From positions 120,001 through 152,000 of the forward strand of contig SHMX01000004.1 of NCBI GenBank assembly GCA_008080745.1: a stretch of 32,000 nucleotides of DNA. Direction: 5' to 3'. The first letter of the stretch is position 1, and every line of letters begins with the position of its first letter. A program made the translations under genes and the position numbers. Positions 19,852 to 32,000 of this stretch are shown piece by piece. The stretch comes from Candidatus Thorarchaeota archaeon. Its GTDB lineage: Archaea; Asgardarchaeota; Thorarchaeia; Thorarchaeales; Thorarchaeaceae. A model generated the notes under the pieces. It was not told where the DNA came from, did not search any database, and saw only the letters and a program-made list of their open reading frames with translations.

Positions 19852-20607
19852 ATGATAGCAAAGCTCGAAAGTCAACTTACTCACATCTGTAAGGACTCGG
19901 GATACAGCTCAAAGATGATTGATGCTACATCGATTCTTCAAATGGCATTCAATAACCCTGATCGTAATATCATCAAAGCGAGAATCAAGTATTCTGGTCA
20001 AAATGAAAAAACATGGATTGTAGTTATAGTTGGCTTGAGGAGTAGTGTTCTGCAGCCATTCAACAAATTCACCAATATAGCTAGTGGCCAATACTCCCCC
20101 TGTGACATTTTTGGTATTGTTCCTTGCATCGCCCAACTTGTTCGGTTCGAATCTACAGGGCCCTCTCTGAGTGCAATTGTGAAAGACGATGTCACTCGGA
20201 TTGTTTTGGTCTTTGAAGGTGATTCAGAGGCTAGATTAGGACCCATTAACTCATTGGCAACCCGACTGTGGCGGTTCATGAAACGGTGGGATGAGTGGAC
20301 AGAGGTCCTACTGGGGATTTTGGAACGTGATCAATATGTTGGTGATTGGGAGCTAAATTGGCGTGAACTTTTGGCTGGTGAATCAGGTTTTGTAACGATG
20401 CCATGGTTTTCTCCTTTGCATTATGATAATCGAGTCTTAGCTATGGCAAGAATAGTAACAGCTTCCAAAGCACTTCTCACCTCTGTTTTGAGTGGTCAAC
20501 AAATGAGTGATTCAATGATAACGGGATTACTTGATTGGTTGGAAAACTTGGAACCTCTTCCAAGAATAGAGAGTGCTCCGTCAACAGATGAGGAGGTAAT
20601 GGTATAA
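19852..20607 (+). CDS. Hypothetical protein (operon gene 1)
   Basis: 251-aa ORF, GGTGA RBS; no recognised motif. Confidence 0.8.
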   Translation: MIAKLESQLTHICKDSGYSSKMIDATSILQMAFNNPDRNIIKARIKYSGQNEKTWIVVIVGLRSSVLQPFNKFTNIASGQYSPCDIFGIVPCIAQLVRFESTGPSLSAIVKDDVTRIVLVFEGDSEARLGPINSLATRLWRFMKRWDEWTEVLLGILERDQYVGDWELNWRELLAGESGFVTMPWFSPLHYDNRVLAMARIVTASKALLTSVLSGQQMSDSMITGLLDWLENLEPLPRIESAPSTDEEVMV

Positions 20608-20608
20608 A

Positions 20609-21076
20609 ATGCTAGTAAACGAATATCTGGGTAATAGTTGGAACGGAGAATTTGGTGTTCCGGACCTATCATGGTTATCTGGTGCAAAGGCTGGAATGCA
20701 GACTTTGAGTGAGCGGAGTCCTACATGGCTTTGGGATGATTTCATTACTGATATTCAAGAGATGATTGAATTAACACGAGATCTTGGATGCACTTTCCCA
20801 GGACAAATCCCCCGCCTTGGAGATGGGCTATCTGGTTCGATTCTTAGTGCACTTGGTGGGTATATCAGTATAACAGGATGTCTTATTGTTGAAGGTCTCT
20901 TCTTCCGAGTTTCTAGGAGGTATCACGAGGATGTGAAAATTGCATTGTCCGGTATTGAGATTCAATCGGTCTATGATGGTTTGGTTATTTCTGCTTCTGA
21001 TTTTAAGCGCCTTCATAACCTCGTAACAATTTGGGGCCCACTTGAGGAGATGCTGGCTGAGGAGGTCATAAAGTGA
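20609..21076 (+). CDS. Hypothetical protein (operon gene 2)
   Basis: 155-aa ORF, GAGGT RBS-like motif; stop overlaps the radA-like start (GTGA). Confidence 0.75.
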   Translation: MLVNEYLGNSWNGEFGVPDLSWLSGAKAGMQTLSERSPTWLWDDFITDIQEMIELTRDLGCTFPGQIPRLGDGLSGSILSALGGYISITGCLIVEGLFFRVSRRYHEDVKIALSGIEIQSVYDGLVISASDFKRLHNLVTIWGPLEEMLAEEVIK

Positions 21077-22137
21077 CAGATCTTGAGTCAGTTAGTGGAG
21101 TAGGCCCTGCAGCTGCAAAGAAATTGCGTGAAGTATTCGTGACCACAGCAGAACTACTCGCGGTTCAAAATCCCGTGGAACTTCAAGCGAAGACCAAACT
21201 TGGTGAAGGAACAGTTGATAAAATCATCAAGAATGCCCGAGAGCTGGTTGGGACTTTTGGTTTCAAGAGTGGACTTGAGGTCGAACAGGATATGGCGGAA
21301 CTACCACGGCTATCAACAGGTATTTCCAAACTTGATGATGAATTACTTGGCGGCATCGAGATTGGATCAATCGTTGAATTCTTTGGCCCATCAAGAGGTG
21401 GAAAAACTCAATGGGCGGCTCAACTTGCTGTTATGACTCAGCTACCTTTAGAACAGGGGGGTCTCGATGGAAGAGTACTTTGGCTGGATAGTGAGTCTTC
21501 TTTCAAGCCTTGGATTATCAGGGCTAATGCAATACGGTTTGGAATGGATCCAGATGTAGCACTTGGCAACATTGGAAGAGCGCAAATAATTCTAAGTAGT
21601 CAACTAATGGACCTCTTTGACTCCATACCGCAACTTTGTGCAGAGAATGATTACAAACTTGTTATTGTTGATTCGCTTACTGGTTTGTTTAGAGTGGAAT
21701 ATACCGGTCTAGAAATGTTGAAGGTACGTCAACAAGATATGAATGGTCTTCTAAATACGATGCGGAGAACTGCATCTGCAACAAACACCATTTTTGCATA
21801 TACTAACCATGTAATGGCAAAGATATCACTCTATGGAGGTAATCCAAATCATCCTGTGGGTGGACATACAATTTCACATGCTTCTGATTACAGATTCTAC
21901 ACGCGTAGATCAAAGAAAGACAAAAGGAAGTTGGACCTTCAAGATAATGCAGGAGTTCCGGAATTTAGCTTTGAATTAACTATTGGTTGGGGTGGATTCT
22001 ACGGCTCTAGTGCTGAGAAGAAGGAAGTTGAGCCCAAGATAAAGGAATACTTCGACAAACATGGTTTTGCGAAACCTGAATCAAGTCCTGATGAAGAATT
22101 GGAGGAGGACATTGTAGCGGCAGGTGAGATTGAGTGA
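21073..22137 (+). CDS. radA: RadA/Rad51-family recombinase, divergent full-length paralogue
   Basis: N-terminal HhH (LESVSGVGPAAAKKL), Walker A GPSRGGKT, LDSESSF, Walker B LVIVDS, L1 LFRVEYTG..RQ, L2 TNHV..PVGGHTISH; acidic tail. Confidence 0.9.
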   Translation: MTDLESVSGVGPAAAKKLREVFVTTAELLAVQNPVELQAKTKLGEGTVDKIIKNARELVGTFGFKSGLEVEQDMAELPRLSTGISKLDDELLGGIEIGSIVEFFGPSRGGKTQWAAQLAVMTQLPLEQGGLDGRVLWLDSESSFKPWIIRANAIRFGMDPDVALGNIGRAQIILSSQLMDLFDSIPQLCAENDYKLVIVDSLTGLFRVEYTGLEMLKVRQQDMNGLLNTMRRTASATNTIFAYTNHVMAKISLYGGNPNHPVGGHTISHASDYRFYTRRSKKDKRKLDLQDNAGVPEFSFELTIGWGGFYGSSAEKKEVEPKIKEYFDKHGFAKPESSPDEELEEDIVAAGEIE

Positions 22138-22592
22138 AACAAGAACGTGGAATGTTTAGGATTTATCGTTGTCCTCAATGCAATAATATTGGTTATACTC
22201 GTGTTGAATCTGAGGATGACTTGTCTGCGTGTAGTCTATGTCGGGGAATAATTTTACATGAGTCTGGCACACTCTATGCGGCAACCGTACAGGAATCTGT
22301 TGATTTAGTTCGAGAACTTGTGATTCTTTCCAAACAAAATGGTGAGTCTAGTAAACCAACAAGAGGTAGGGGTTTACGAAAACGCATTCTTACTATTATA
22401 ATATCTCTAATTGATTTGAATAGAGGCAAACCTGTTCCCTTACGAGAAATTCTCAGAGAATGTGTTGATGCCGATATAGCTCTAGAACGAGCGATGACCT
22501 TTCTTGAACTTCTTGAAACAGAAGGAATCCTATTGAATTTTGACTCTAAAATCAGTTTAAAGAAGGAGGTAATCCAAGATGGCAGAATCTAG
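22134..22592 (+). CDS. Zn-ribbon plus C-terminal winged-helix protein (DUF1922/DUF5817-like layout)
   Basis: CPQC...CSLC; C-terminal RILTIIISL...VPLREILREC...AMTFLELLETEGIL resembles an MCM-C/wHTH fold. Confidence 0.7.
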   Translation: MKQERGMFRIYRCPQCNNIGYTRVESEDDLSACSLCRGIILHESGTLYAATVQESVDLVRELVILSKQNGESSKPTRGRGLRKRILTIIISLIDLNRGKPVPLREILRECVDADIALERAMTFLELLETEGILLNFDSKISLKKEVIQDGRI

Positions 22593-23214
22593 TTCCAAAT
22601 CAAAATCTGGTGTAGTATGGGTTCCCAGAACTCCTAAGACGGTAAAAAGAAGCTCGATGATTAATCTGGTCAATCTATTACTGAGAGAAACTTCTCATCG
22701 AGTAACTGTACTCGATAAGTCTGAAGAGCCTGATCCAAAACTGTTTGTGGTTACCCGTATTGAATGGAGAGATCCTGATATCAGAAAACCACTCCTTCCC
22801 CAGTTACCGAGATTACTATCACTATTGGAGACCCTTAGAGGCACTCGTGGTGTTCCTACTGAGATTTATTTAGACAGTACAGATGGTATTGCGGTCTATC
22901 TACCTACTCATGAAACCGTTTCCACCTTGCCTGAAAAACCAAAAGAGTGCGTACGTCATTTGATGGATTTAGTAGAAAATCATGTTGAACATACATTGGC
23001 AACTATGCAAGAGGTAGAGGAGTATTTCTGGAAGACCGCCCGTAAAAAGGGATATAGTCCTGAAATTGTTGCGAAGATTGATCTAAAAGAGAAACACTTC
23101 GACTCACCAGAACATGTCTATAGGTTCCAATATCTGCTGCAAAAATATTTCTCAATACGTTTCCGCATTCACTCAAGTGAGTCTTGTTTACGTGTGGAGG
23201 CTGGTAGTTGCTAA
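22579..23214 (+). CDS. Hypothetical protein (operon gene 5)
   Basis: 211-aa ORF, GGAGGT RBS; overlaps both neighbours. Confidence 0.8.
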   Translation: MAESSSKSKSGVVWVPRTPKTVKRSSMINLVNLLLRETSHRVTVLDKSEEPDPKLFVVTRIEWRDPDIRKPLLPQLPRLLSLLETLRGTRGVPTEIYLDSTDGIAVYLPTHETVSTLPEKPKECVRHLMDLVENHVEHTLATMQEVEEYFWKTARKKGYSPEIVAKIDLKEKHFDSPEHVYRFQYLLQKYFSIRFRIHSSESCLRVEAGSC

Positions 23215-25178
23215 CAGATACGACCGACCCGCTATCCTGGTTTCCATACCTGCCAAGACCTCATCAGGACAAAGCGGTTTACCTCTCTGCAGAGGTCTTT
23301 GGGTCGAAGAACGTGGGATTACTATCTGCTGATTGTGGTGTGGGTAAAACTATCGCAGTATTATCCGGCTATTTGGCGGCTCGATATGATGATCCAACAT
23401 CTAGGTTATTCGCTCTAACTAGAACCCACTCACAATCGAAAGTATTTGAAGAAGAATTAAGCATACTAAGAGAACAATCACTTGCTATCACAGCCACTTC
23501 TATGGTGTCAAGAGTACATGTATGTCCAATTCGTGCTCAGATTTCTTCCAATACCTCAACGGGATTCACAAAAGCTTGTTCCCAAATGGTCAAGATGGGT
23601 AGGTGCACTCATTATTGGAACATGTATAAGCGACATAGAGAAGAGGGAAAACTCACTATACGAAATCAAATTCGTTCTCTTCTGGAAGAGCTTCTAGATA
23701 CTGGAGTAGTTAGCAGAGACCGAGCAGAAGACTTTGCAAATCTTCATACTCTCTGTCCATATGAAGTGCTTCGCTGGTGTGCTAGAAATAGTCGTGTTGT
23801 GATTGGACCTTATAGTTATATGTTCAAATCCCGTGTGCGTGATTCTCTGTTGGCTTCTGTGGGAGTCCATCTTCATGAATTGGACTTACTAATTGATGAA
23901 GCCCATAATCTTCCTTCTCATGTTCTTGATTCTGAAACAGCACGGTTGACTGGGGAAGACCTGAGATATCTGAAAGAGCATAGTCGAGAATTGGTTAGAG
24001 AGACAAGAGTCGATTGGATTGGAGAAGTTGTTGATTTTCTTTGGGAAACTCTCATGGTAAAATTGGATAGTTTTGGAAATAGACGCGAAATAAAACTGGA
24101 TAAATGGGATGTAGTTCCTCGCTTTATTGAGAAAGAGAGTCTTGACCTTTTGGTTCAATCCCATGATTTGAGTCTTGGTGACCCAGAAAATGCTGTACAT
24201 GCTGAGAATCCCTTTGATCGATTTGTTGATTTTTTGTTGATTGGAAGTAAAGCTGTTGAAAGCGAAGATTGGCATATATCGCTTAACTTGATGAAAAACT
24301 GGCATGGAGAAAAGACACCGCTTAAGACCAATCTTGCTATCCGCCCTTTGAATGCAGCTGGATTAACTGCACCTGTCCTAAGAGGTGCTAGATCAGCGTT
24401 GCTGATGAGTGGAACACTCAGACCATTAGAACACTATGGGAAGCTTCTTGGTGTTTCGGGTGCTTTAAAGGAGGACCTAGAGAGTCCATATCCCAAAGGT
24501 AGTAGACTTGTTCTTATTGATAAGAAACTGTCGACAAAATACACAGAGAGAAGTTCCGAACTCTGGAGACTGTTAGCTGAGCGTATCAATGCAGTTCTGA
24601 ATACTATGCCAGCAAATAAGAGTGCCATGATTGCCTTTCCTAGTTATCATATGATGCGTGAGATTTTGAGCTATTCCATCGACACCGGTTATCGTGGGAA
24701 GATAATTGAGGATCGTGGTGCTCGTCTGGAGTTTGTAACCGAGGCGATCGAAGAACGTCCTCAAGCGGTCTTCTGTGTATATGGTGGAAAATTCAGTGAA
24801 GGAATTGATATTGTAAAAGATGGTTCTAGTATGATTGACCTAATTATTGGTGTTGGTATTCCTTTTAGCCCACCAACCAGCTATCAGCAAGCAATTCAGG
24901 ATTGGTACAATCGGAAATTTGGTGAAGGTTTAGGGTATTACTACTCGTCGGTTGTACCATCATTACGTCAGGTTGCTCAATTGATTGGCCGTCTTAGAAG
25001 ATCCCCTTCTGATTGGGGTGTGGTTACTCTTCTAGATAATCGGTTTATGAGATATTTGTCAATTCTGGGTGATGGTATCGTTTCTGATATTTGGCCTTAT
25101 GAGAGTGTATCTGAGATTCGTTCTGCTATCACATCCTTTGTAGAAATGAGAATGGGTGATAATTGTGAGATATTCTAA
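23208..25178 (+). CDS. xpd: XPD/Rad3/DinG-family Fe-S DNA helicase
   Basis: Q motif RPHQ, Walker A ADCGVGKT, four Cys of the Fe-S domain (VCP, KAC, GRC, LCPY), DEAHN, SGTL, GGKFSEGID, QLIGRLRR. Confidence 0.93.
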   Translation: MLTDTTDPLSWFPYLPRPHQDKAVYLSAEVFGSKNVGLLSADCGVGKTIAVLSGYLAARYDDPTSRLFALTRTHSQSKVFEEELSILREQSLAITATSMVSRVHVCPIRAQISSNTSTGFTKACSQMVKMGRCTHYWNMYKRHREEGKLTIRNQIRSLLEELLDTGVVSRDRAEDFANLHTLCPYEVLRWCARNSRVVIGPYSYMFKSRVRDSLLASVGVHLHELDLLIDEAHNLPSHVLDSETARLTGEDLRYLKEHSRELVRETRVDWIGEVVDFLWETLMVKLDSFGNRREIKLDKWDVVPRFIEKESLDLLVQSHDLSLGDPENAVHAENPFDRFVDFLLIGSKAVESEDWHISLNLMKNWHGEKTPLKTNLAIRPLNAAGLTAPVLRGARSALLMSGTLRPLEHYGKLLGVSGALKEDLESPYPKGSRLVLIDKKLSTKYTERSSELWRLLAERINAVLNTMPANKSAMIAFPSYHMMREILSYSIDTGYRGKIIEDRGARLEFVTEAIEERPQAVFCVYGGKFSEGIDIVKDGSSMIDLIIGVGIPFSPPTSYQQAIQDWYNRKFGEGLGYYYSSVVPSLRQVAQLIGRLRRSPSDWGVVTLLDNRFMRYLSILGDGIVSDIWPYESVSEIRSAITSFVEMRMGDNCEIF

Positions 25179-25758
25179 GAAGAAAAATTACTTCTGGAGC
25201 TTTGTTACTGGATCATTGGTTGGTTTTGTTCTGTATGTATTTCTAAACCAGACTATATTTGATGTTGTCATTGGTGTAATGGGAATTGGAATTGGAATTG
25301 GGATTATACTTCTATGGACCCAATTATTCAAGGCAAAAATCATGTGGAGTGAAACCCATGGATGTTTGGCCATTAATCGCAAGTATACTGTCGATGTATA
25401 TGCAGGATGTATTATGACAAGTGTTCCTCTTGGTATTGATCTAAGTCGTTCAGCTCGAAAAGTGCTACGAGCTATCGCTACCAGGATGAAAAATGATATC
25501 GACTGTGAGATTAGTTTTTTTGTCATTCGGCCTGTTCATAAATTCCAAACGAGGGTCGGACTACTGGTTTCACGTAATACCTTCCGTTTAGTGAATGGGC
25601 TTACTCAATCCGACTCTCTTCTAAAGCAACTGAATCAGGATGTAATGACCTTAGAGTCCGCTTTGAGAGCTGCCTATCCTCACACGCCTGTTGAAAGAGC
25701 ATCAGCTGATGATTTGCTACTTGTTACTACTGGAGGAGTCTACACCCATGAAATCTAA
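25156..25758 (+). CDS. Hypothetical membrane protein, two N-terminal TM helices plus soluble domain
   Basis: FWSFVTGSLVGFVLYVFL and VVIGVMGIGIGIGIILLW; exact start uncertain. Confidence 0.75.
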   Translation: MIIVRYSKKKNYFWSFVTGSLVGFVLYVFLNQTIFDVVIGVMGIGIGIGIILLWTQLFKAKIMWSETHGCLAINRKYTVDVYAGCIMTSVPLGIDLSRSARKVLRAIATRMKNDIDCEISFFVIRPVHKFQTRVGLLVSRNTFRLVNGLTQSDSLLKQLNQDVMTLESALRAAYPHTPVERASADDLLLVTTGGVYTHEI

Positions 25759-26050
25759 ACTACGTAGTTCCTTAGAGATACCCTCCTCTATAGAGCCAAA
25801 TGATGTGATGGAAGCACTTCGAATCGGACATGGATACCAGTGGACTAGGTTGGTTTTAGAACCAAAATTCATGGCTCATGGAAATCCTCCTTCTTCCAAG
25901 CTTCCAGAGTTGTTATTTATTGGGATAAAAACCCTCATTCTTTCTGGCGGTTCTCCTGAGTTTCCTGAGAGAATTGAGAAGATGATTGATGCAATTTGTA
26001 GAAGCTCGAAACGAAAACAGAAATTATCTGGAGGAAGGTATCATGGGTAA
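25748..26050 (+). CDS. Small hypothetical protein (100 aa)
   Basis: ATG 25748 preceded by GGAGGAG; MKSKLRSSLEIP...; overlaps both neighbours. Confidence 0.65.
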   Translation: MKSKLRSSLEIPSSIEPNDVMEALRIGHGYQWTRLVLEPKFMAHGNPPSSKLPELLFIGIKTLILSGGSPEFPERIEKMIDAICRSSKRKQKLSGGRYHG

Positions 26051-28382
26051 ACCGTTAATTCTTGGTTCAGAACCAGAAAAAGATCCACTAGAATCACGGA
26101 CTCGACAAAGCATGATTGTGAGCTCTGATACAGAGATAGATTGGGATAGTCGAAGTGTAGAACAAAAGTGGTCATTTCCGATTCTTATTGGCTTTATCAC
26201 AATATTAGTAGTATTGTTTCAACCTATTCTTTCGATTTGTTTAACTATTATCATCCTATCTACCCTTTATTTTCTTCCTACTGTTTCAGCAAGAAGAGAA
26301 ATCGATTCTATCAGAAATAGTCAATGGATTATACTGAAGCCACGTGAAAATATTCTCTCGGAAACCGATGAAACTCTACTATATCGGGATAATGATGATA
26401 ATCGTCATTTAATAGGGTTAGAATTGTTTGAACCAAGTAACATGTTGTTTGGCTCTTTGGGAAGCATGATACGCTCTCTCAATACAGACCATGGTTTTGT
26501 GCTTCGTGTTTCTATGCGATTGGAATCGATAGAAGAAGTAATTAATCAAGATAGAATTCGTTCTAATAAGGAAGAGTATCTGGAATCACTTGGTAAATCT
26601 GGCAGGCATCGATTCATTTCTGTTAGAGGCGGGCTCTGGTCTACTTATGTAATGCTTGTTGGTCATCTTAGAGATTTACATTCGGTTTCTACCTTTGAAG
26701 CTGCTATACATGGGGCAGTTCCAACATCAGGTTGGAAACAAATCGAGAATAAAGATCTCGCTAAACGATTGACCATTCAGAAGAGCGATTATTTATCCCG
26801 GTTTTATGCTCTGGGTCATGAGCTATCGGAATGGCTTGTTCAATTACCCAGTGAGTTAGCGCCCGAAGTAGGAAGCAATGTGCCCAGTGAATTCCTATCT
26901 CCGATTAAAACTATAGCTTCTGATTATCCACTTGGAGTCGCTGTGAATCCTGAAACACTCCAGACTGGGCCTGTAGTCGGATTTAGTCATAATGATTTAG
27001 TGAATGGAACTTTAGTATGTGGTGGCACCAACGCAGAACGAAAGCGGATACTTGCACTCCTCATCCAGGCATTGATTGCTAAAGAAAAACGTGTTCTCCT
27101 CATAACTGGCAATCCAAATTATGGGGATTTGGCTGGTCTCACAGAGAATGTAATTACCTTGGAGCTGGGTCATGACTTTGTTCTTAACCCCGTTGATCCC
27201 GACAATGTACCAAGGACCGAGTATGTTGGGCAATTGATTTCTGCTTTGGAGATTTTGGCAGGAGCTGACCTTACAGGAGCTGCTGATCTTGAGATAGCAC
27301 TAAACCGAACAGTAGCAATTGGGAATACCACTGTGGCAGATGTTAGATTTGATACTGCAGAAGAATTGATGGATTCCCCATCGATTGATAAGACCTCTCA
27401 GACAACAAAACCAAGTAATAAGTCCCTAGTGGGTCTTGATGCAGTCCGACTATTGCATGAGGGATCTGGTGCTCGTGCATTTTATGGAACTCAAACCATC
27501 CCTATCCGTGATTTCACTAAAATTCCCTATACAGTTCTTACCATTAACCTAGGGTCTGTCGAACTGGATACATTTGCATTTGATTTATTGATGATGAAAT
27601 TAGCCGGTCTGAAACAAGATTCCGATTTTGTAGTGATTTTTAATGAACCACTAAATCTTGTTGCTAGAAATCGACGACATTATTACAGAATTCCATGGAT
27701 AGAGTTCCTTGCTAAACGTGTGAAAAAGAGGGGCCCATTAGTTGTAGCAATGGAACACCCTGCTGATTTTTCACCTGCAACTATTGGATTGTTGACTTCA
27801 TGTGTTTCATCTAGGTTACGAGAGTCAGTGGATGTAAAAGAGGCTGTTGATCTTCTTGGTCTAAGTGTTATTCAAACTGGGATGCATAGTAAAGCACGTC
27901 ATTCTTCAAGAGAAACTTCCTTTCTACGGGTTATCCCTGATGGAATGGCTGTTATTGCAAATACTGGTGGTGAATTAGGTTATCCCGTAAAACTGAATGA
28001 TTCCCCAGACCTCTCGGAGATGACATCAACCACAGATGTAACAAAGCGTCTGGCTGAATATACGACTTGTGTAAAAGAAAGTAGCTCTAGGAAGACAGAT
28101 TCATTAATTGAGCATGTGATGGGCCGGGATTACGAACATGGCATAGCAGTATTACGTCTTCTTCAAAGATATGAACCCCTTACCCAAGAGGCTGTTAGAA
28201 AATTCATCTCTACTACAACTGATGATGTTCCTGATATAGAAGCCATTTTGATGAAATTAGAACGTGGAAGTTTGATTCTGAAGGGACATGAAATTCACAG
28301 TGGTGTCTCTTATTTGAACTATCGATTGACAATGAAAGGAACAATGGCGTTGAGGCAAAACGGGGAGGATTTGATGAAATGA
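26043..28382 (+). CDS. Membrane-anchored HerA/VirB4-fold pseudo-ATPase with C-terminal winged helix
   Basis: Likely start ATG 26043 (GGAGG RBS); TM hairpin near the N-terminus; HerA-like scaffold TLVCGGTNAERK / VLLITGNPNY / LNPVD / VIFNEP / VVAMEHPADF with destroyed Walker A and D-to-N Walker B; wHTH-like end LMKLERGSLI...YRLTMKG. Confidence 0.65.
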   Translation: MGKPLILGSEPEKDPLESRTRQSMIVSSDTEIDWDSRSVEQKWSFPILIGFITILVVLFQPILSICLTIIILSTLYFLPTVSARREIDSIRNSQWIILKPRENILSETDETLLYRDNDDNRHLIGLELFEPSNMLFGSLGSMIRSLNTDHGFVLRVSMRLESIEEVINQDRIRSNKEEYLESLGKSGRHRFISVRGGLWSTYVMLVGHLRDLHSVSTFEAAIHGAVPTSGWKQIENKDLAKRLTIQKSDYLSRFYALGHELSEWLVQLPSELAPEVGSNVPSEFLSPIKTIASDYPLGVAVNPETLQTGPVVGFSHNDLVNGTLVCGGTNAERKRILALLIQALIAKEKRVLLITGNPNYGDLAGLTENVITLELGHDFVLNPVDPDNVPRTEYVGQLISALEILAGADLTGAADLEIALNRTVAIGNTTVADVRFDTAEELMDSPSIDKTSQTTKPSNKSLVGLDAVRLLHEGSGARAFYGTQTIPIRDFTKIPYTVLTINLGSVELDTFAFDLLMMKLAGLKQDSDFVVIFNEPLNLVARNRRHYYRIPWIEFLAKRVKKRGPLVVAMEHPADFSPATIGLLTSCVSSRLRESVDVKEAVDLLGLSVIQTGMHSKARHSSRETSFLRVIPDGMAVIANTGGELGYPVKLNDSPDLSEMTSTTDVTKRLAEYTTCVKESSSRKTDSLIEHVMGRDYEHGIAVLRLLQRYEPLTQEAVRKFISTTTDDVPDIEAILMKLERGSLILKGHEIHSGVSYLNYRLTMKGTMALRQNGEDLMK

Positions 28383-30586
28383 CGACGATATCCGACGTTC
28401 CGAATCCAATTGAACAGATTCTGCATTCCGCAGGGATAAAACCCCGTGGTGTTCAAAAGAAAGCCATCAAAGCTGGGATTTATGATGGTAAAAGCATCAT
28501 GGTTTCGAGCCCTACGGGATCTGGTAAGACTCTCATCGGAGAAATGGCTCTCCTCCGTGCAGTTCTGAGTGGTAAGAAGGGCCTTTATTTGGTTCCCCTT
28601 AGGGCCCTCGCAGTACAAGTAGCGTCAGTTTTGAAAGAACGATATTTTGATTCCGAGATAAGTGTCGGATTAAGTACTGGTGACTATCATACAGATGGTG
28701 AAGAACTATCTACTTATGATGTAATTGTCACCACCTATGAACGAACAGATTCGCTTCTTCGGAAAAAGACGTCTTGGCTAGGAGAGATTGGAACAGTAGT
28801 AATTGATGAGATTCAGACTTTAGCGGAAACTCAAAGAGGAGCTAGATTAGAATCTACTATCATCCGACTAAAACATCTAATTCCAGAAATACAGCTGATT
28901 GTTTTATCTGCAACCATTGGAGCTCCAGATGAACTTGCAGAATGGTTGAGGTGTGAACTCGTAGTATCAAACGACCGTCCGATTCCACTTCATTCTAACA
29001 TAATCACTACAAGTGACAAGAGTAATGCAGTGAAAGAGATTGTTATGACTACTGTCCAGAGTAATGGTCAGTGTTTAGTATTTCATAGAACCCGTCGTGA
29101 AGCAGAGGTTCAGGCGATAAGACTTTCTGCAGATGTTGGTCGTCAATTCACAGCAGAAGAGAAGAAGAAAATAGATGACGAGTTAGGTTCTGTAGTTAAT
29201 TGGGACGTTAAACTACCTGCAGGTCTAAAAGCACTTCTTCATGATGGTACTGCATATCACCATGCTGGACTGAATTATCTTGCCCGGAGATTGGTTGAGG
29301 ATTTATTCAGACGTGGTATGATTCGCGTAATCTGTGCAACCACTACTCTAGCATCAGGAATCGATCTTCCTGCTCGTACTGTTGTTCTTACATCTGTGAA
29401 AGAGCCATCAAATCACAATCAATTCATGTCTGGAAATAAAATTCATCAGATGCTTGGAAGAGCAGGACGTCCAGGATACGACAAACGGGGGGTAGGTGTA
29501 CTGCTTGCTGGAAGCTCTGGAGAAGCAGATGTTATCAGACGTAAATACTTCAAAACTTCATCTGTTACGGAGAATAAATCTGAGATTCTTCAGCCAAAGT
29601 ATGATCGATTGTTTAGTACTCTGAATGAAACAAATGCCGTAACTGAACAGCTACTTGTTGGATTTGATATGTTTGGGTCCACCACGGTTGAAAACATTGA
29701 ACAAAGCTTATTCTCTGACTCTTTTCTGATGTATTGTAGTATTCGTGACACGCGATCACCACACAGAATTCTTCAATTAGATGAACTATCATCAGAAACT
29801 GCAATCGAACGACATGCCCTCCAAGATGCTATTAGGTCTGCAAGACAGAATGTGCTTGCAAGTGTAAAAATTAGAGAAAGCACTGATTCTGTAATTGGAG
29901 GGATTGTAACTGGATGGGAAGGAGGTAATTTCACATCACGATTTTCTGCAAAGCTTTCACCTGATGGTACCGTGGAGGGTCCAATGTGCTCTTGTGGCAT
30001 CCCTTTTGACTCGAATGGTTTACTTTGTCCTCATTTGGTGGCCTTGGGTTTTACTGCGTCAAAGGAATTAGGTACATTAGCTGATTATGTAATTCCACTC
30101 GCATTATCTGAGAGTAATCCATTAGGAGTTCTTACAAGATTAGGACTTATAGAAGGCTCTGAAGATGGTGAATATAGGATAACCCATCTAGGTAGTGTGG
30201 TTAATCGTCTATATCTTAGCATCCCAACCATCAGAGAAATGATTGCTTTGTTACCTTTCACCAGTGATGTAGAAGATCTTCTTTGGCTTCTAAGACATTT
30301 GGCTTCAATTGAAACCGGGAGTTCTCTTGATGACTCCTATGAAAATCTTGTAGCTGGTGTTGCAAGCACGGATATGGAAATTAGTAAACTGGCAGAGAGT
30401 CTTGAACTACATGTTGGTGATGCTTACGGCCTTTTAGAAACATCAAGATGGCTTCTATCTGCAATCTCTGCAGTGAGTGAAATAGGAGGATTTGAAGAAT
30501 TGGTACAAAAATCAACGAACTTGCTGAAATCGTTGGATAATCGTTTAGGAAGAACTACTCCAGAAAATCAGGAGGATGAGGAATAA
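28379..30586 (+). CDS. Ski2-like (Hel308-type) SF2 helicase with inserted SWIM zinc finger
   Basis: GVQKKA, SPTGSGKT, DEIQ, SAT, HHAGL, TTTLASGIDLPA, QMLGRAGRPGYD; CSC-x10-CPH at 29987-30034. Confidence 0.92.
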   Translation: MTTISDVPNPIEQILHSAGIKPRGVQKKAIKAGIYDGKSIMVSSPTGSGKTLIGEMALLRAVLSGKKGLYLVPLRALAVQVASVLKERYFDSEISVGLSTGDYHTDGEELSTYDVIVTTYERTDSLLRKKTSWLGEIGTVVIDEIQTLAETQRGARLESTIIRLKHLIPEIQLIVLSATIGAPDELAEWLRCELVVSNDRPIPLHSNIITTSDKSNAVKEIVMTTVQSNGQCLVFHRTRREAEVQAIRLSADVGRQFTAEEKKKIDDELGSVVNWDVKLPAGLKALLHDGTAYHHAGLNYLARRLVEDLFRRGMIRVICATTTLASGIDLPARTVVLTSVKEPSNHNQFMSGNKIHQMLGRAGRPGYDKRGVGVLLAGSSGEADVIRRKYFKTSSVTENKSEILQPKYDRLFSTLNETNAVTEQLLVGFDMFGSTTVENIEQSLFSDSFLMYCSIRDTRSPHRILQLDELSSETAIERHALQDAIRSARQNVLASVKIRESTDSVIGGIVTGWEGGNFTSRFSAKLSPDGTVEGPMCSCGIPFDSNGLLCPHLVALGFTASKELGTLADYVIPLALSESNPLGVLTRLGLIEGSEDGEYRITHLGSVVNRLYLSIPTIREMIALLPFTSDVEDLLWLLRHLASIETGSSLDDSYENLVAGVASTDMEISKLAESLELHVGDAYGLLETSRWLLSAISAVSEIGGFEELVQKSTNLLKSLDNRLGRTTPENQEDEE

Positions 30587-32000
30587 TGGTAATCTCTGAG
30601 AAAAAGGAATCTAGTGTTATTGAATCTGACACAACGGAAGATGCTGAAACTGAATATGACATTGTTCGAGCTCTTCAGAAGACAGAGCATCTTACTCATA
30701 CATATGAGAATGGACTGGTACTAGGGGTACGATTAGAAGGTGTAACTGGAACACGAGGGGTACACCTTGATATCGTACATATTCTAGACCTTAGAAAAGC
30801 AGAATTCGGCAAGACCAATTTGGCCATGCGTGCTGCTGTATTGGAGAGTATGAATCGAAGCCTTGAATCACTTCTTGAAGATGTTGGTTTGAATGATTTT
30901 CTTGAGGAAAGAACATTCATCACTGCATGGGGTCGGGTTCGCATTCCAACAATTGGTTCCGCCAAGCACAATTCCAGATCAATGATTCACGAAACTCGAA
31001 CAGTCTATGTGATTGTGAAAGACACAAAACCATCTACTGATTTTTCTTGGCTCACTGAAACAAAAAGAGTGGTGACCCCTGACGAGTTTGCTTTAGTTCG
31101 AATTACCGACACCAAGTCTCTTCTTACCAACCTCCAGAAACAGATTGCATCAGAAAAATGGAAGATACTAGAAAGGGGTTTCCGTGATAGTTGGTTAGGA
31201 ATCATCTTCTCTTCTATAATTTTGGTGGGTATAGGAAGTATTGTTGGTGTTCTACTTGTCAATAATGGCAATGTCGCTTTGCCAATATTTGCAATTATCG
31301 GTGGAGTTCTGCTAGGCGGATACTTTCTTAGCTCTTCTCGTAGACATCTCTCCGATTTTCGAGAAATGGTTTGTGTGGAGGAACAAAAGCTCTCTGAGAT
31401 GTCTGATAAGACGCGGATAGAAGAATCTGTCCTTGAGAATATGGATAGTATGCGTTTACTAGGTGATTTGAATTTTGTAGTTTCACCACTGATGGCAAAG
31501 GCTGGGAATGCATTATCTGACCTAGATCTTGATGGTGCTGTTAGCTTTGCGTGTTCGGTTATGGATGAATGTATGCGTCTATCTTCTGCAGATTTGAGTA
31601 AATTAGAGGGTTCATTCATAGGTGGTGATGAAGGTATTGCAAAATTTGTTGGGTTATTTGGAGATTTGGGTGCTGAAGAATATGAAACAGACTTGGCATT
31701 AGCTTATGTCGCACTAACAGGCTATACTATCAGTCCCATATCTGCTGAAGAGGTCATCACTCATATAGCCACTCTAAATAACGCTCTATACCATATTGGA
31801 GCTCTTAGACCTGATATAAAAGAAATAATCGACGATTTACTGAATTCGCGTGCAGGTATGGAGGCTGTAGAATATCTAAATGAGGAGCTAAGCAAACCAG
31901 AAGAACCTATTCCGGAACCTAGTTTGCCATCCAAGAAACAAGAAGAAGCAACAATCGAAGATAAAGAAGACAGCTCTGAAGAATTAGATGCACTTAAAGA
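30586..32000 (+). CDS. Hypothetical two-TM membrane protein, runs off the right edge (over 470 aa; absent from the ORF track)
   Basis: Manual translation from ATG 30586 (TAATG overlap): MVISEKKESSVIES...; open to 32000; TM pair WLGIIFSSIILVGIGSIVGVLLV / LPIFAIIGGVLLGGYFL; acidic, Pro-rich end. Confidence 0.8.
   Translation, partial: MVISEKKESSVIESDTTEDAETEYDIVRALQKTEHLTHTYENGLVLGVRLEGVTGTRGVHLDIVHILDLRKAEFGKTNLAMRAAVLESMNRSLESLLEDVGLNDFLEERTFITAWGRVRIPTIGSAKHNSRSMIHETRTVYVIVKDTKPSTDFSWLTETKRVVTPDEFALVRITDTKSLLTNLQKQIASEKWKILERGFRDSWLGIIFSSIILVGIGSIVGVLLVNNGNVALPIFAIIGGVLLGGYFLSSSRRHLSDFREMVCVEEQKLSEMSDKTRIEESVLENMDSMRLLGDLNFVVSPLMAKAGNALSDLDLDGAVSFACSVMDECMRLSSADLSKLEGSFIGGDEGIAKFVGLFGDLGAEEYETDLALAYVALTGYTISPISAEEVITHIATLNNALYHIGALRPDIKEIIDDLLNSRAGMEAVEYLNEELSKPEEPIPEPSLPSKKQEEATIEDKEDSSEELDALK

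Follow-up and report, generated by a model that had tools for sequence, protein, structure and literature searches.

Why would a Hel308-type helicase carry a zinc module in the middle of its winged helix (WH) domain and lack the domain 5 that restrains other members of its family? The question is raised by a gene in a 32,000-nucleotide (nt) stretch of a Candidatus Thorarchaeota genome (contig SHMX01000004.1, positions 120,001 to 152,000, forward strand; assembly GCA_008080745.1), referred to below as the window. A first-pass annotation, made from the letters alone, had read the gene as a Hel308-like helicase with a SWIM finger inserted in the WH and no domain 5, and had suggested that the finger docks a RadA paralogue of the same operon on an unbraked helicase, as an archaeal echo of the Shu complex. 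We find that the architecture stands, and we propose that the gene product, P0001, would be the motor of a recombination or DNA-processing machine in which the SWIM module serves for docking and regulation in trans takes the place of domain 5. The probability that we give to this proposal as a whole is about 0.55.

The open reading frame (ORF) of P0001 overlaps the stop of the upstream 798-amino-acid (aa) ORF by 4 nt, and its own stop overlaps the start of the downstream 519-aa ORF. The strings singled out at first pass, EQLLVGFDMFGSTTVENIEQSLFSDSF, CSCGIPFDSNGLLCPH, LTRLGLIE...YRITHLGSVVNRLYL and GDAYGLLETSRWLL, were all found in it. Pfam matched DEAD at residues 25-181 and Helicase_C at 291-366, and a motif alignment revealed that the superfamily 2 (SF2) motifs are intact: I (PTGSGKT), Ia, Ib, Ic, II (DEIQ), III (SAT), IV, IVa (HHAGL), V and VI (QMLGRAGRPG). 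By sequence, the closest solved proteins were archaeal Hjm/Hel308 (2zj2, 2p6r, 2va8; E 1e-65 to 1e-73, and 1e-70 to 1e-73 for 2zj2 and 2p6r); Brr2, ASCC3 and POLQ came next. An AlphaFold2 (AF2) model, built from 28 homologues (mean predicted local distance difference test score, pLDDT, 86.9), was superposed on Hel308/Hjm with a VIA-align Z of about 33, about 560-580 residues being aligned between model residues 7 and 728; Foldseek gave E 1e-33 for the same comparison. P0001 therefore shares with canonical Hel308 both an SF2 motor with motifs I-VI and a WH and ratchet closing a ring with the motor, and the Hel308-like identity first proposed is borne out by superposition, motifs and best sequence matches alike.

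P0001 is not the housekeeping enzyme. The same genome encodes a canonical Hel308, which scored 585 bits over the whole NCBIfam profile NF040935, versus 279 bits for P0001 over positions 7-415 of 704. This is far below the Hel308 cut-off, and orthology with the housekeeping Hel308 does not hold. Between the two proteins, the motor (aa 26-395 of P0001) is 37% identical. As judged from its sequence and predicted structure, P0001 is an ATP-driven Hel308-type (Ski2-like SF2) DNA translocase/helicase other than the housekeeping Hel308. At motif II (window 28796-28822), DEIQ is the form of the Thorarchaeota clade, with Q146 invariant in 28 members; the other SWIM-bearing forms described below, and canonical Hel308, have DEIH.

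The alignment of P0001 to Hjm 2zj2 found by phmmer reaches residue 462, inside the WH. Between reference positions 455 and 583, P0001 has 128 residues, versus 13 in the canonical Hel308 of the same genome. In the AF2 model, this insert consists of a loop, two short helices, a four-stranded sheet, a zinc knuckle and two helices. The four strands lie at residues 495-537, the knuckle carries C537 and C539, and a helix follows from residue 551, where C550 and H552 are found (DSSP). Modelled in isolation, the insert adopted the same fold (pLDDT 81.9). Beyond it the WH resumes, with a conserved L585, G605 and RLYL pattern common to canonical Hel308. The ratchet that follows was matched by Pfam Helicase_dom4_arc at only E 0.005, and by BLAST to residues 600-641 of canonical Hel308.

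To what family does the insert belong? P0001 itself scored 11.5-12.5 bits with Pfam SWIM (E 0.11-0.23; gathering cut-off 19.6). The model was matched in 16 of the 28 family inserts (best E 1.3e-4), with no competing family, and with 27.7 bits the distant member P0270 lies above the gathering cut-off of 19.6. A structural search of the ESM Atlas with residues 486-580 returned SNF2-associated bacterial SWIM proteins, small SWIM proteins and plant FAR1/MULE-SWIM proteins (TM 0.58-0.61); a feature search of the Atlas with the insert gave no usable match. In the Swiss-Prot part of the AlphaFold database (AFDB), the insert matched FAR1/FHY3/FRS, ZSWIM4/5/6/8 and YwqB at their SWIM regions with a probability of 0.9 or more, and almost all matches above 0.7 were SWIM proteins. 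No clear solved homologue came out of a VIA search of the whole PDB with the insert alone, all Z being below 5; sulfatase C-domains and ZSWIM8 tied there at a weak Z of 4.2-4.4 (ZSWIM8, Z 4.2). None of the four candidate ligands (C537, C539, C550 and H552) varies among 28 family members sharing 47-75% identity, and all four are present in 25 of 25 distant Asgard relatives (27-38% identity). Across the lineage the insert measures ~115-125 aa, with a CxC-xn-CxH spacer of n = 8-21. We take the insert to be a SWIM-type zinc module of the generic type, zinc binding being predicted from motif and model. The SWIM finger announced at first pass thus rests on an insert of 128 versus 13 residues, on SWIM structural matches, and on ligands that did not vary among 28 and 25 homologues.

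The absence of domain 5 was examined with the genome's canonical Hel308 (L001:1483-3729, 748 aa) as a positive control. In the control, Pfam found HTH_61 at 396-487, Helicase_dom4_arc at 530-656 and HHH_5 at 662-715; in P0001, a Pfam search for HHH_5 gave no match. The last similarity of P0001 to Hel308 is the ratchet helix, residues 680-707 aligning to canonical 614-641. Only 28 residues are left after this match, the last 11 of them disordered. Structural alignments of P0001 end at residues 628-648 of A. fulgidus Hel308 (628-662 for Hel308/Hjm chains overall). Given the short tail, the missing HHH_5 and the end of the alignments, domain 5 is therefore absent from P0001, as had been claimed. 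The two outcomes that would have told against the first-pass annotation, Cys/His residues that vary among homologues and a domain-5 equivalent in the model, were not observed. Features of the helicase and of its neighbourhood are collected in Table 1.

Table 1. Positions of the helicase, its domains and its operon; window coordinates unless another locus is named.
Feature	Position	Strand	Basis or remark
Operon, about 15 genes	window 19852-32000 + L013:587-5489 (G000:C4:139852-155488)		tightly coupled
RadA paralogue, 354 aa; helix-hairpin-helix (HhH) N-domain + Rad51 core, Walker A GPSRGGKT	21073..22137	+	
XPD/Rad3-like helicase, 656 aa	23208..25178	+	
Unknown protein g9, 798 aa, predicted transmembrane (TM) segment(s)	25986..28382	+	coupled to helicase start
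P0001, SWIM-bearing Hel308-like helicase, complete ORF	28379..30586	+	735 aa plus stop; flanking ORFs overlap both ends
RecA1 + RecA2 motor domains (about aa 1-395)	28379..29563	+	Pfam DEAD, Helicase_C; motif alignment
WH domain 3, first part (about aa 410-458; helices 418-432, 437-443, 449-458)	29606..29752	+	phmmer, DSSP
WH insert, about 124 aa (aa 459-582)	29753..30124	+	length vs canonical Hel308; model pLDDT 81-94
SWIM core (aa 495-563): beta1-beta4 + helix carrying CxH	29861..30067	+	Pfam SWIM; Atlas/AFDB structural matches
Predicted zinc-ligand motif CSCGIPFDSNGLLCPH (C537, C539, C550, H552; CxC-x10-CxH)	29987..30034	+	invariant in alignments
WH, second part (aa 583-612): helix, wing hairpin (591-593, 599-601), THLGSVVNRLYL helix	30125..30214	+	alignment, DSSP
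Ratchet domain 4 (aa 613-724), ratchet helix GDAYGLLETSRWLL (680-693)	30215..30550	+	Pfam, BLAST, VIA-align
Short acidic disordered C-terminal tail (aa 725-735), no domain 5	30551..30583	+	pLDDT below 50; no HHH_5
Unknown acidic protein g11, 519 aa, 2 predicted TM segments	30586..32000	+	coupled to helicase stop; runs past window end

Is this architecture a peculiarity of one genome? The C-terminal half of P0001 had 133 clusters of close homologues, almost all labelled Thorarchaeota. An exhaustive profile search, made with an alignment of the WH, SWIM and ratchet, revealed a second tier, in which proteins measure 700-880 aa and have the source labels Hermodarchaeia, Jordarchaeum, Ranarchaeia, Heimdallarchaeota, Loki-/Promethearchaeota and Helarchaeota. 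Among 201 genomes of the phylum, the module occurs in the window's family (36 of 43 genomes) and in no fewer than 8 other families; several further families of this set gave no match with an E-value of 1e-8 or lower. A tree of Asgard sequences, built without the insert columns, placed the canonical Hel308s in one clade (Shimodaira-Hasegawa-like approximate likelihood ratio test, SH-aLRT, 99) and 30 of the 32 SWIM forms in another (95), and monophyly of all 32 was not rejected by the approximately unbiased test (p-AU 0.52). These data indicate that the SWIM forms make up a paralogue lineage of their own, spread across Asgard archaea and so far found in them alone.

Within this lineage, some forms retain domain 5. 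HHH_5 is kept in the long-tailed SWIM forms P0264 (Heimdall label), P0270, P0271 and P0280, and in the Loki-type P0300 the tail matches canonical residues 649-711 at 41% identity (E 3e-11), a stretch that holds the YG[IV]xEEL linker and the RAR motif. Forms devoid of domain 5 fall mostly in one clade of 19 rows (support 85-96). On this distribution, loss of domain 5 in the SWIM lineage is derived, and it accompanies the operon context described below. A SWIM module paired with the lack of domain 5 is not the ancestral condition, since other Asgard SWIM forms keep the domain. The Helarchaeota-labelled P0273 (884 aa; L018:10001-12655) has a 189-residue tail after the ratchet without an HHH_5 match, and a different C-terminal domain probably stands there in place of domain 5.

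Canonical Hel308 and the SWIM paralogue coexist within one genome in four other families. In a further family, f9 (G139, G040, G064, G145, G175, G008; 99-100% complete), a SWIM form of ~845 aa was the sole Hel308-like match in all six genomes, and no canonical Hel308 was found in them at E 1e-30 to 1e-40 or better. This form (for instance L032:1414-3942) has a CxC-x21-CxH motif and a true domain 5. Its motif is nearly identical to that of a Lokiarchaeota-labelled protein, and the family is apparently Loki-type. Hel308 has been reported absent from 13 of 15 Lokiarchaeota genomes (PMC10946056). A SWIM form as the only Hel308-like gene fits this report and may explain it.

The genome of the window holds a second, very divergent SWIM-bearing Hel308-like paralogue of 739 aa (G000:C2:74778-76997, L035:10779-12998, + strand), in which CSCESWKYQGLKRHRLCKH lies at residue 551. 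Motifs I, II and III are gone from it and Pfam gives no DEAD or Helicase_C match, while the SWIM ligands are kept. Its neighbours are housekeeping genes (succinyl-CoA ligase, RsmB, PAC2), among which it stands by itself, and it looks like an ATPase-dead adaptor that has kept its SWIM module.

What could the module do? Within Thorarchaeota it is conserved at the level of the motor (67-69% mean column identity). This speaks against the insert being a structural zinc buttress of the WH, devoid of a binding function of its own and kept by history, as one might suppose from the lineage-wide pattern, in which, apart from the four ligands, only a few glycine and hydrophobic positions are conserved. 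The ATPase-dead sister paralogue, which lacks motifs I-III, also keeps the SWIM ligands, and therefore argues for a module function independent of the motor. We hold the buttress explanation to be very doubtful.

Binding of nucleic acid by the module deserves more attention. The SWIM module might provide the WH with a contact to the duplex or branch point, and partly replace the domain-5 contact in the domain-5-less branch. The WH of Hel308 takes part in DNA binding and unwinding, according to the work of Northall et al. 2017 as cited in PMC13623763, and SWIM domains were originally predicted to be DNA or protein binders, as recounted in PMC5727457. Two sheet residues, R499 and R521, are invariant within the Thorarchaeota family, but they are not conserved in the wider lineage, and the net charge of the module, -4 in P0001, ranges from -6 to +10 across the lineage. 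Moreover, the module is also present in SWIM forms that have domain 5; therefore it did not arise as a replacement for it. A nucleic-acid-binding role is in our view possible, though unlikely.

The helicase is gene 10 of its operon. The 5' part comprises, in order, two unknown genes, the RadA paralogue, two unknown genes, the XPD-like helicase and small membrane proteins; the 798-aa g9, the SWIM helicase and the 519-aa acidic TM protein g11 follow; and the operon ends with an AAA/RecA-like ATPase (g12), a multi-TM protein (g13), a RadB-like ATPase (g14) and an XPG/FEN-like nuclease. TM segments are predicted in g7, g9, g11 and g13. Thorarchaeota members that are only about 50% identical keep the gene order and also the flanks, with GH3 on the upstream side and a giant surface protein on the downstream side. 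This points to a vertically inherited core operon rather than a mobile island.

This synteny bears on a further explanation, in which the helicase would belong to a mobile anti-phage defence system such as a Hachiman-like one, whose HamB is a Hel308-like helicase. The PADLOC models HamB, PDC-M23B and BrxH did match the helicase core (E 1e-41 to 1e-25), but the matches were confined to the generic motor. The other operon proteins matched no defence model, except for a generic DinG match of the XPD-like gene, and no neighbour matched HamA. With operon and flanks syntenic and the gene in 36 of 43 family genomes, inheritance is vertical and core-like, and we give this explanation almost no credence. 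A defence-system identity was rejected, PADLOC having produced generic motor matches alone.

The presence of a RadA paralogue in the operon of the helicase, claimed at first pass, was confirmed, and the genome encodes a canonical RadA, as well as a canonical Hel308, elsewhere (canonical RadA 318 bits, operon copy 180). The operon copy keeps HHH_5, its Walker A (GPSRGGKT) is atypical compared with GSFRSGKT in the canonical copy, and it falls just below the NCBIfam RadA cut-off (258.4 versus 259). Its family consists of Thorarchaeota-labelled records alone, 58-87% identical to one another. Outside Thorarchaeota, a rearranged core was found near the domain-5-less forms of Helarchaeota, Jordarchaeum and one further Asgard genome. 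Besides an XPG-like nuclease and a g9-like protein, this core comprises a small RecA-like ATPase and a divergent RadA paralogue whose Walker A is atypical. Homologues of g9 also occur near the SWIM helicases of other Asgard classes, and the neighbour of the Heimdall SWIM form is a canonical RadA.

Does the SWIM finger then dock the RadA paralogue on an unbraked helicase, making the pair an archaeal counterpart of Shu? The precedents are real: the SWIM domain of yeast Shu2 directly contacts the Rad51 paralogue Shu1 (PMC5727457), human HELQ binds the RAD51-paralogue complex BCDX2 (PMC13623763), and divergent RadA paralogues recur beside domain-5-less SWIM helicases in four Asgard lineages. The Shu2/SWS1 signature CXHXXA (PMC6316741), however, is not a property of the family. 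P0001 has the alanine at H+3, but only 15 of 28 Thorarchaeota members and 7 of 26 distant ones do, and on this test the Shu echo of the earlier annotation fails. Nor were Shu2/SWS1 among the closest structural matches of the insert, which were generic SWIM proteins. The partners in Shu are minimal RecA cores, whereas the operon RadA paralogue is full length with its HhH domain, so that the small RecA-like g12 and g14 would be closer analogues. It is encoded six genes upstream of the helicase, whereas the two unknown proteins g9 and g11 are translationally coupled to it, and Loki-type SWIM forms outside such clusters still keep the module. A complex prediction with the C-terminal half of the helicase and the RadA paralogue, run without controls, scored 0.00 against a mark of 0.32 and counts as evidence neither way. 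Shu-like docking of the RadA paralogue therefore strikes us as improbable, and as candidate SWIM partners the coupled g9 and g11 are at least as likely. The same idea can be put more broadly, as an Asgard-specific machine of helicase and recombinase paralogue in which the module docks a RecA-family subunit, domain-5 loss hands control to partners, and the whole is a counterpart, possibly a relative, of HELQ-BCDX2 and Shu (SWS1-SWSAP1); in that form, too, we consider it a long shot.

We favour the reading that P0001 would drive, as motor subunit, a multi-protein machine dedicated to recombination or DNA processing. Its components, taken from the cluster, would be the RadA paralogue, the small RecA-like ATPases, the XPD-like helicase, the XPG/FEN-like nuclease, the g9-like protein and the membrane proteins. 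The SWIM module, stabilised by zinc, would offer a surface on which a partner subunit or a DNA structure docks, and the regulation formerly exerted by domain 5 would pass to partners acting in trans. In Hel308, ATPase and helicase activity are held back by domain 5, which also mediates the annealing of strands (PMC13623763). By analogy with the domain-5 deletion studies of other Hel308s reviewed there, P0001 may be unbraked, an effect that trans-acting partners may offset.

Three observations tell against this machine. The Loki-type SWIM form lies outside any recombination cluster, and the SWIM module itself is therefore independent of that context. The variation of net charge across the lineage gives no clear pointer to either DNA or protein binding by the module. 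Finally, nanopore work, as cited in PMC13623763, found little effect of domain-5 deletion on translocation; the loss of domain 5 may therefore matter less than assumed.

In a full-text literature search, no work was found that connects a SWIM domain with a Hel308/Ski2-like helicase or with Asgard archaea, and neither a 2024 survey of archaeal Ski2-like helicases (PMC10946056) nor a 2026 review of Hel308/HELQ (PMC13623763) mentions a SWIM-Hel308. How domain 5 controls Hel308/HELQ, and how the helicase is linked to RAD51 paralogues, is under active study (PMC13623763). In the archaea most closely related to eukaryotes, the SWIM lineage supplies natural variants of a Hel308-type motor with an added zinc module, some having domain 5 and some lacking it; the latter are built into operons that also hold RadA paralogues and a FEN/XPG-like nuclease. 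The proteins look soluble and amenable to standard biochemistry.

How does P0001 compare with known systems? With Hel308/Hjm (2p6r, 2va8, 2zj2) and the helicase domains of HELQ and POLQ it has in common the motor, the WH and the ratchet helix, at about 30% identity over about 560-580 residues. Unlike Hel308/Hjm, it has a WH split by SWIM and a DEIQ motif, and is devoid of the HhH domain 5, the RAR motif and the swivel linker. With SWIM proteins (PF04434; FAR1/FHY3, ZSWIM4-8, SNF2-associated proteins, B. subtilis YwqB) it shares CxC-xn-CxH with a typical n, and a sheet followed by the CxH helix. In P0001, however, the module is neither terminal nor stand-alone but an internal insertion in an accessory domain of a helicase.

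The arch domain of Mtr4 and Ski2 is a docking platform for adaptors and substrates. It, too, interrupts the WH of a Ski2-like helicase (PMC10946056), so that the two inserts, compared at the level of domains, have the same host. Their folds are unrelated: the arch is a helical stalk with a KOW barrel, carried by RNA helicases, whereas the insert of P0001 is a SWIM zinc module.

Two comparisons concern recombination. Shu2/SWS1 has in common with P0001 a SWIM domain encoded together with RecA/Rad51 paralogues in a recombination context; but Shu2/SWS1 is a small stand-alone protein with CXHXXA, and the P0001 family has neither property. Human HELQ-BCDX2 (PMC13623763, PMC13125761) and the P0001 operon both link a Hel308-family helicase to RAD51 paralogues. 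In the human case this is a physical interaction of separately encoded proteins, the helicase having domain 5 and no SWIM, whereas for P0001 the link is that of the genes.

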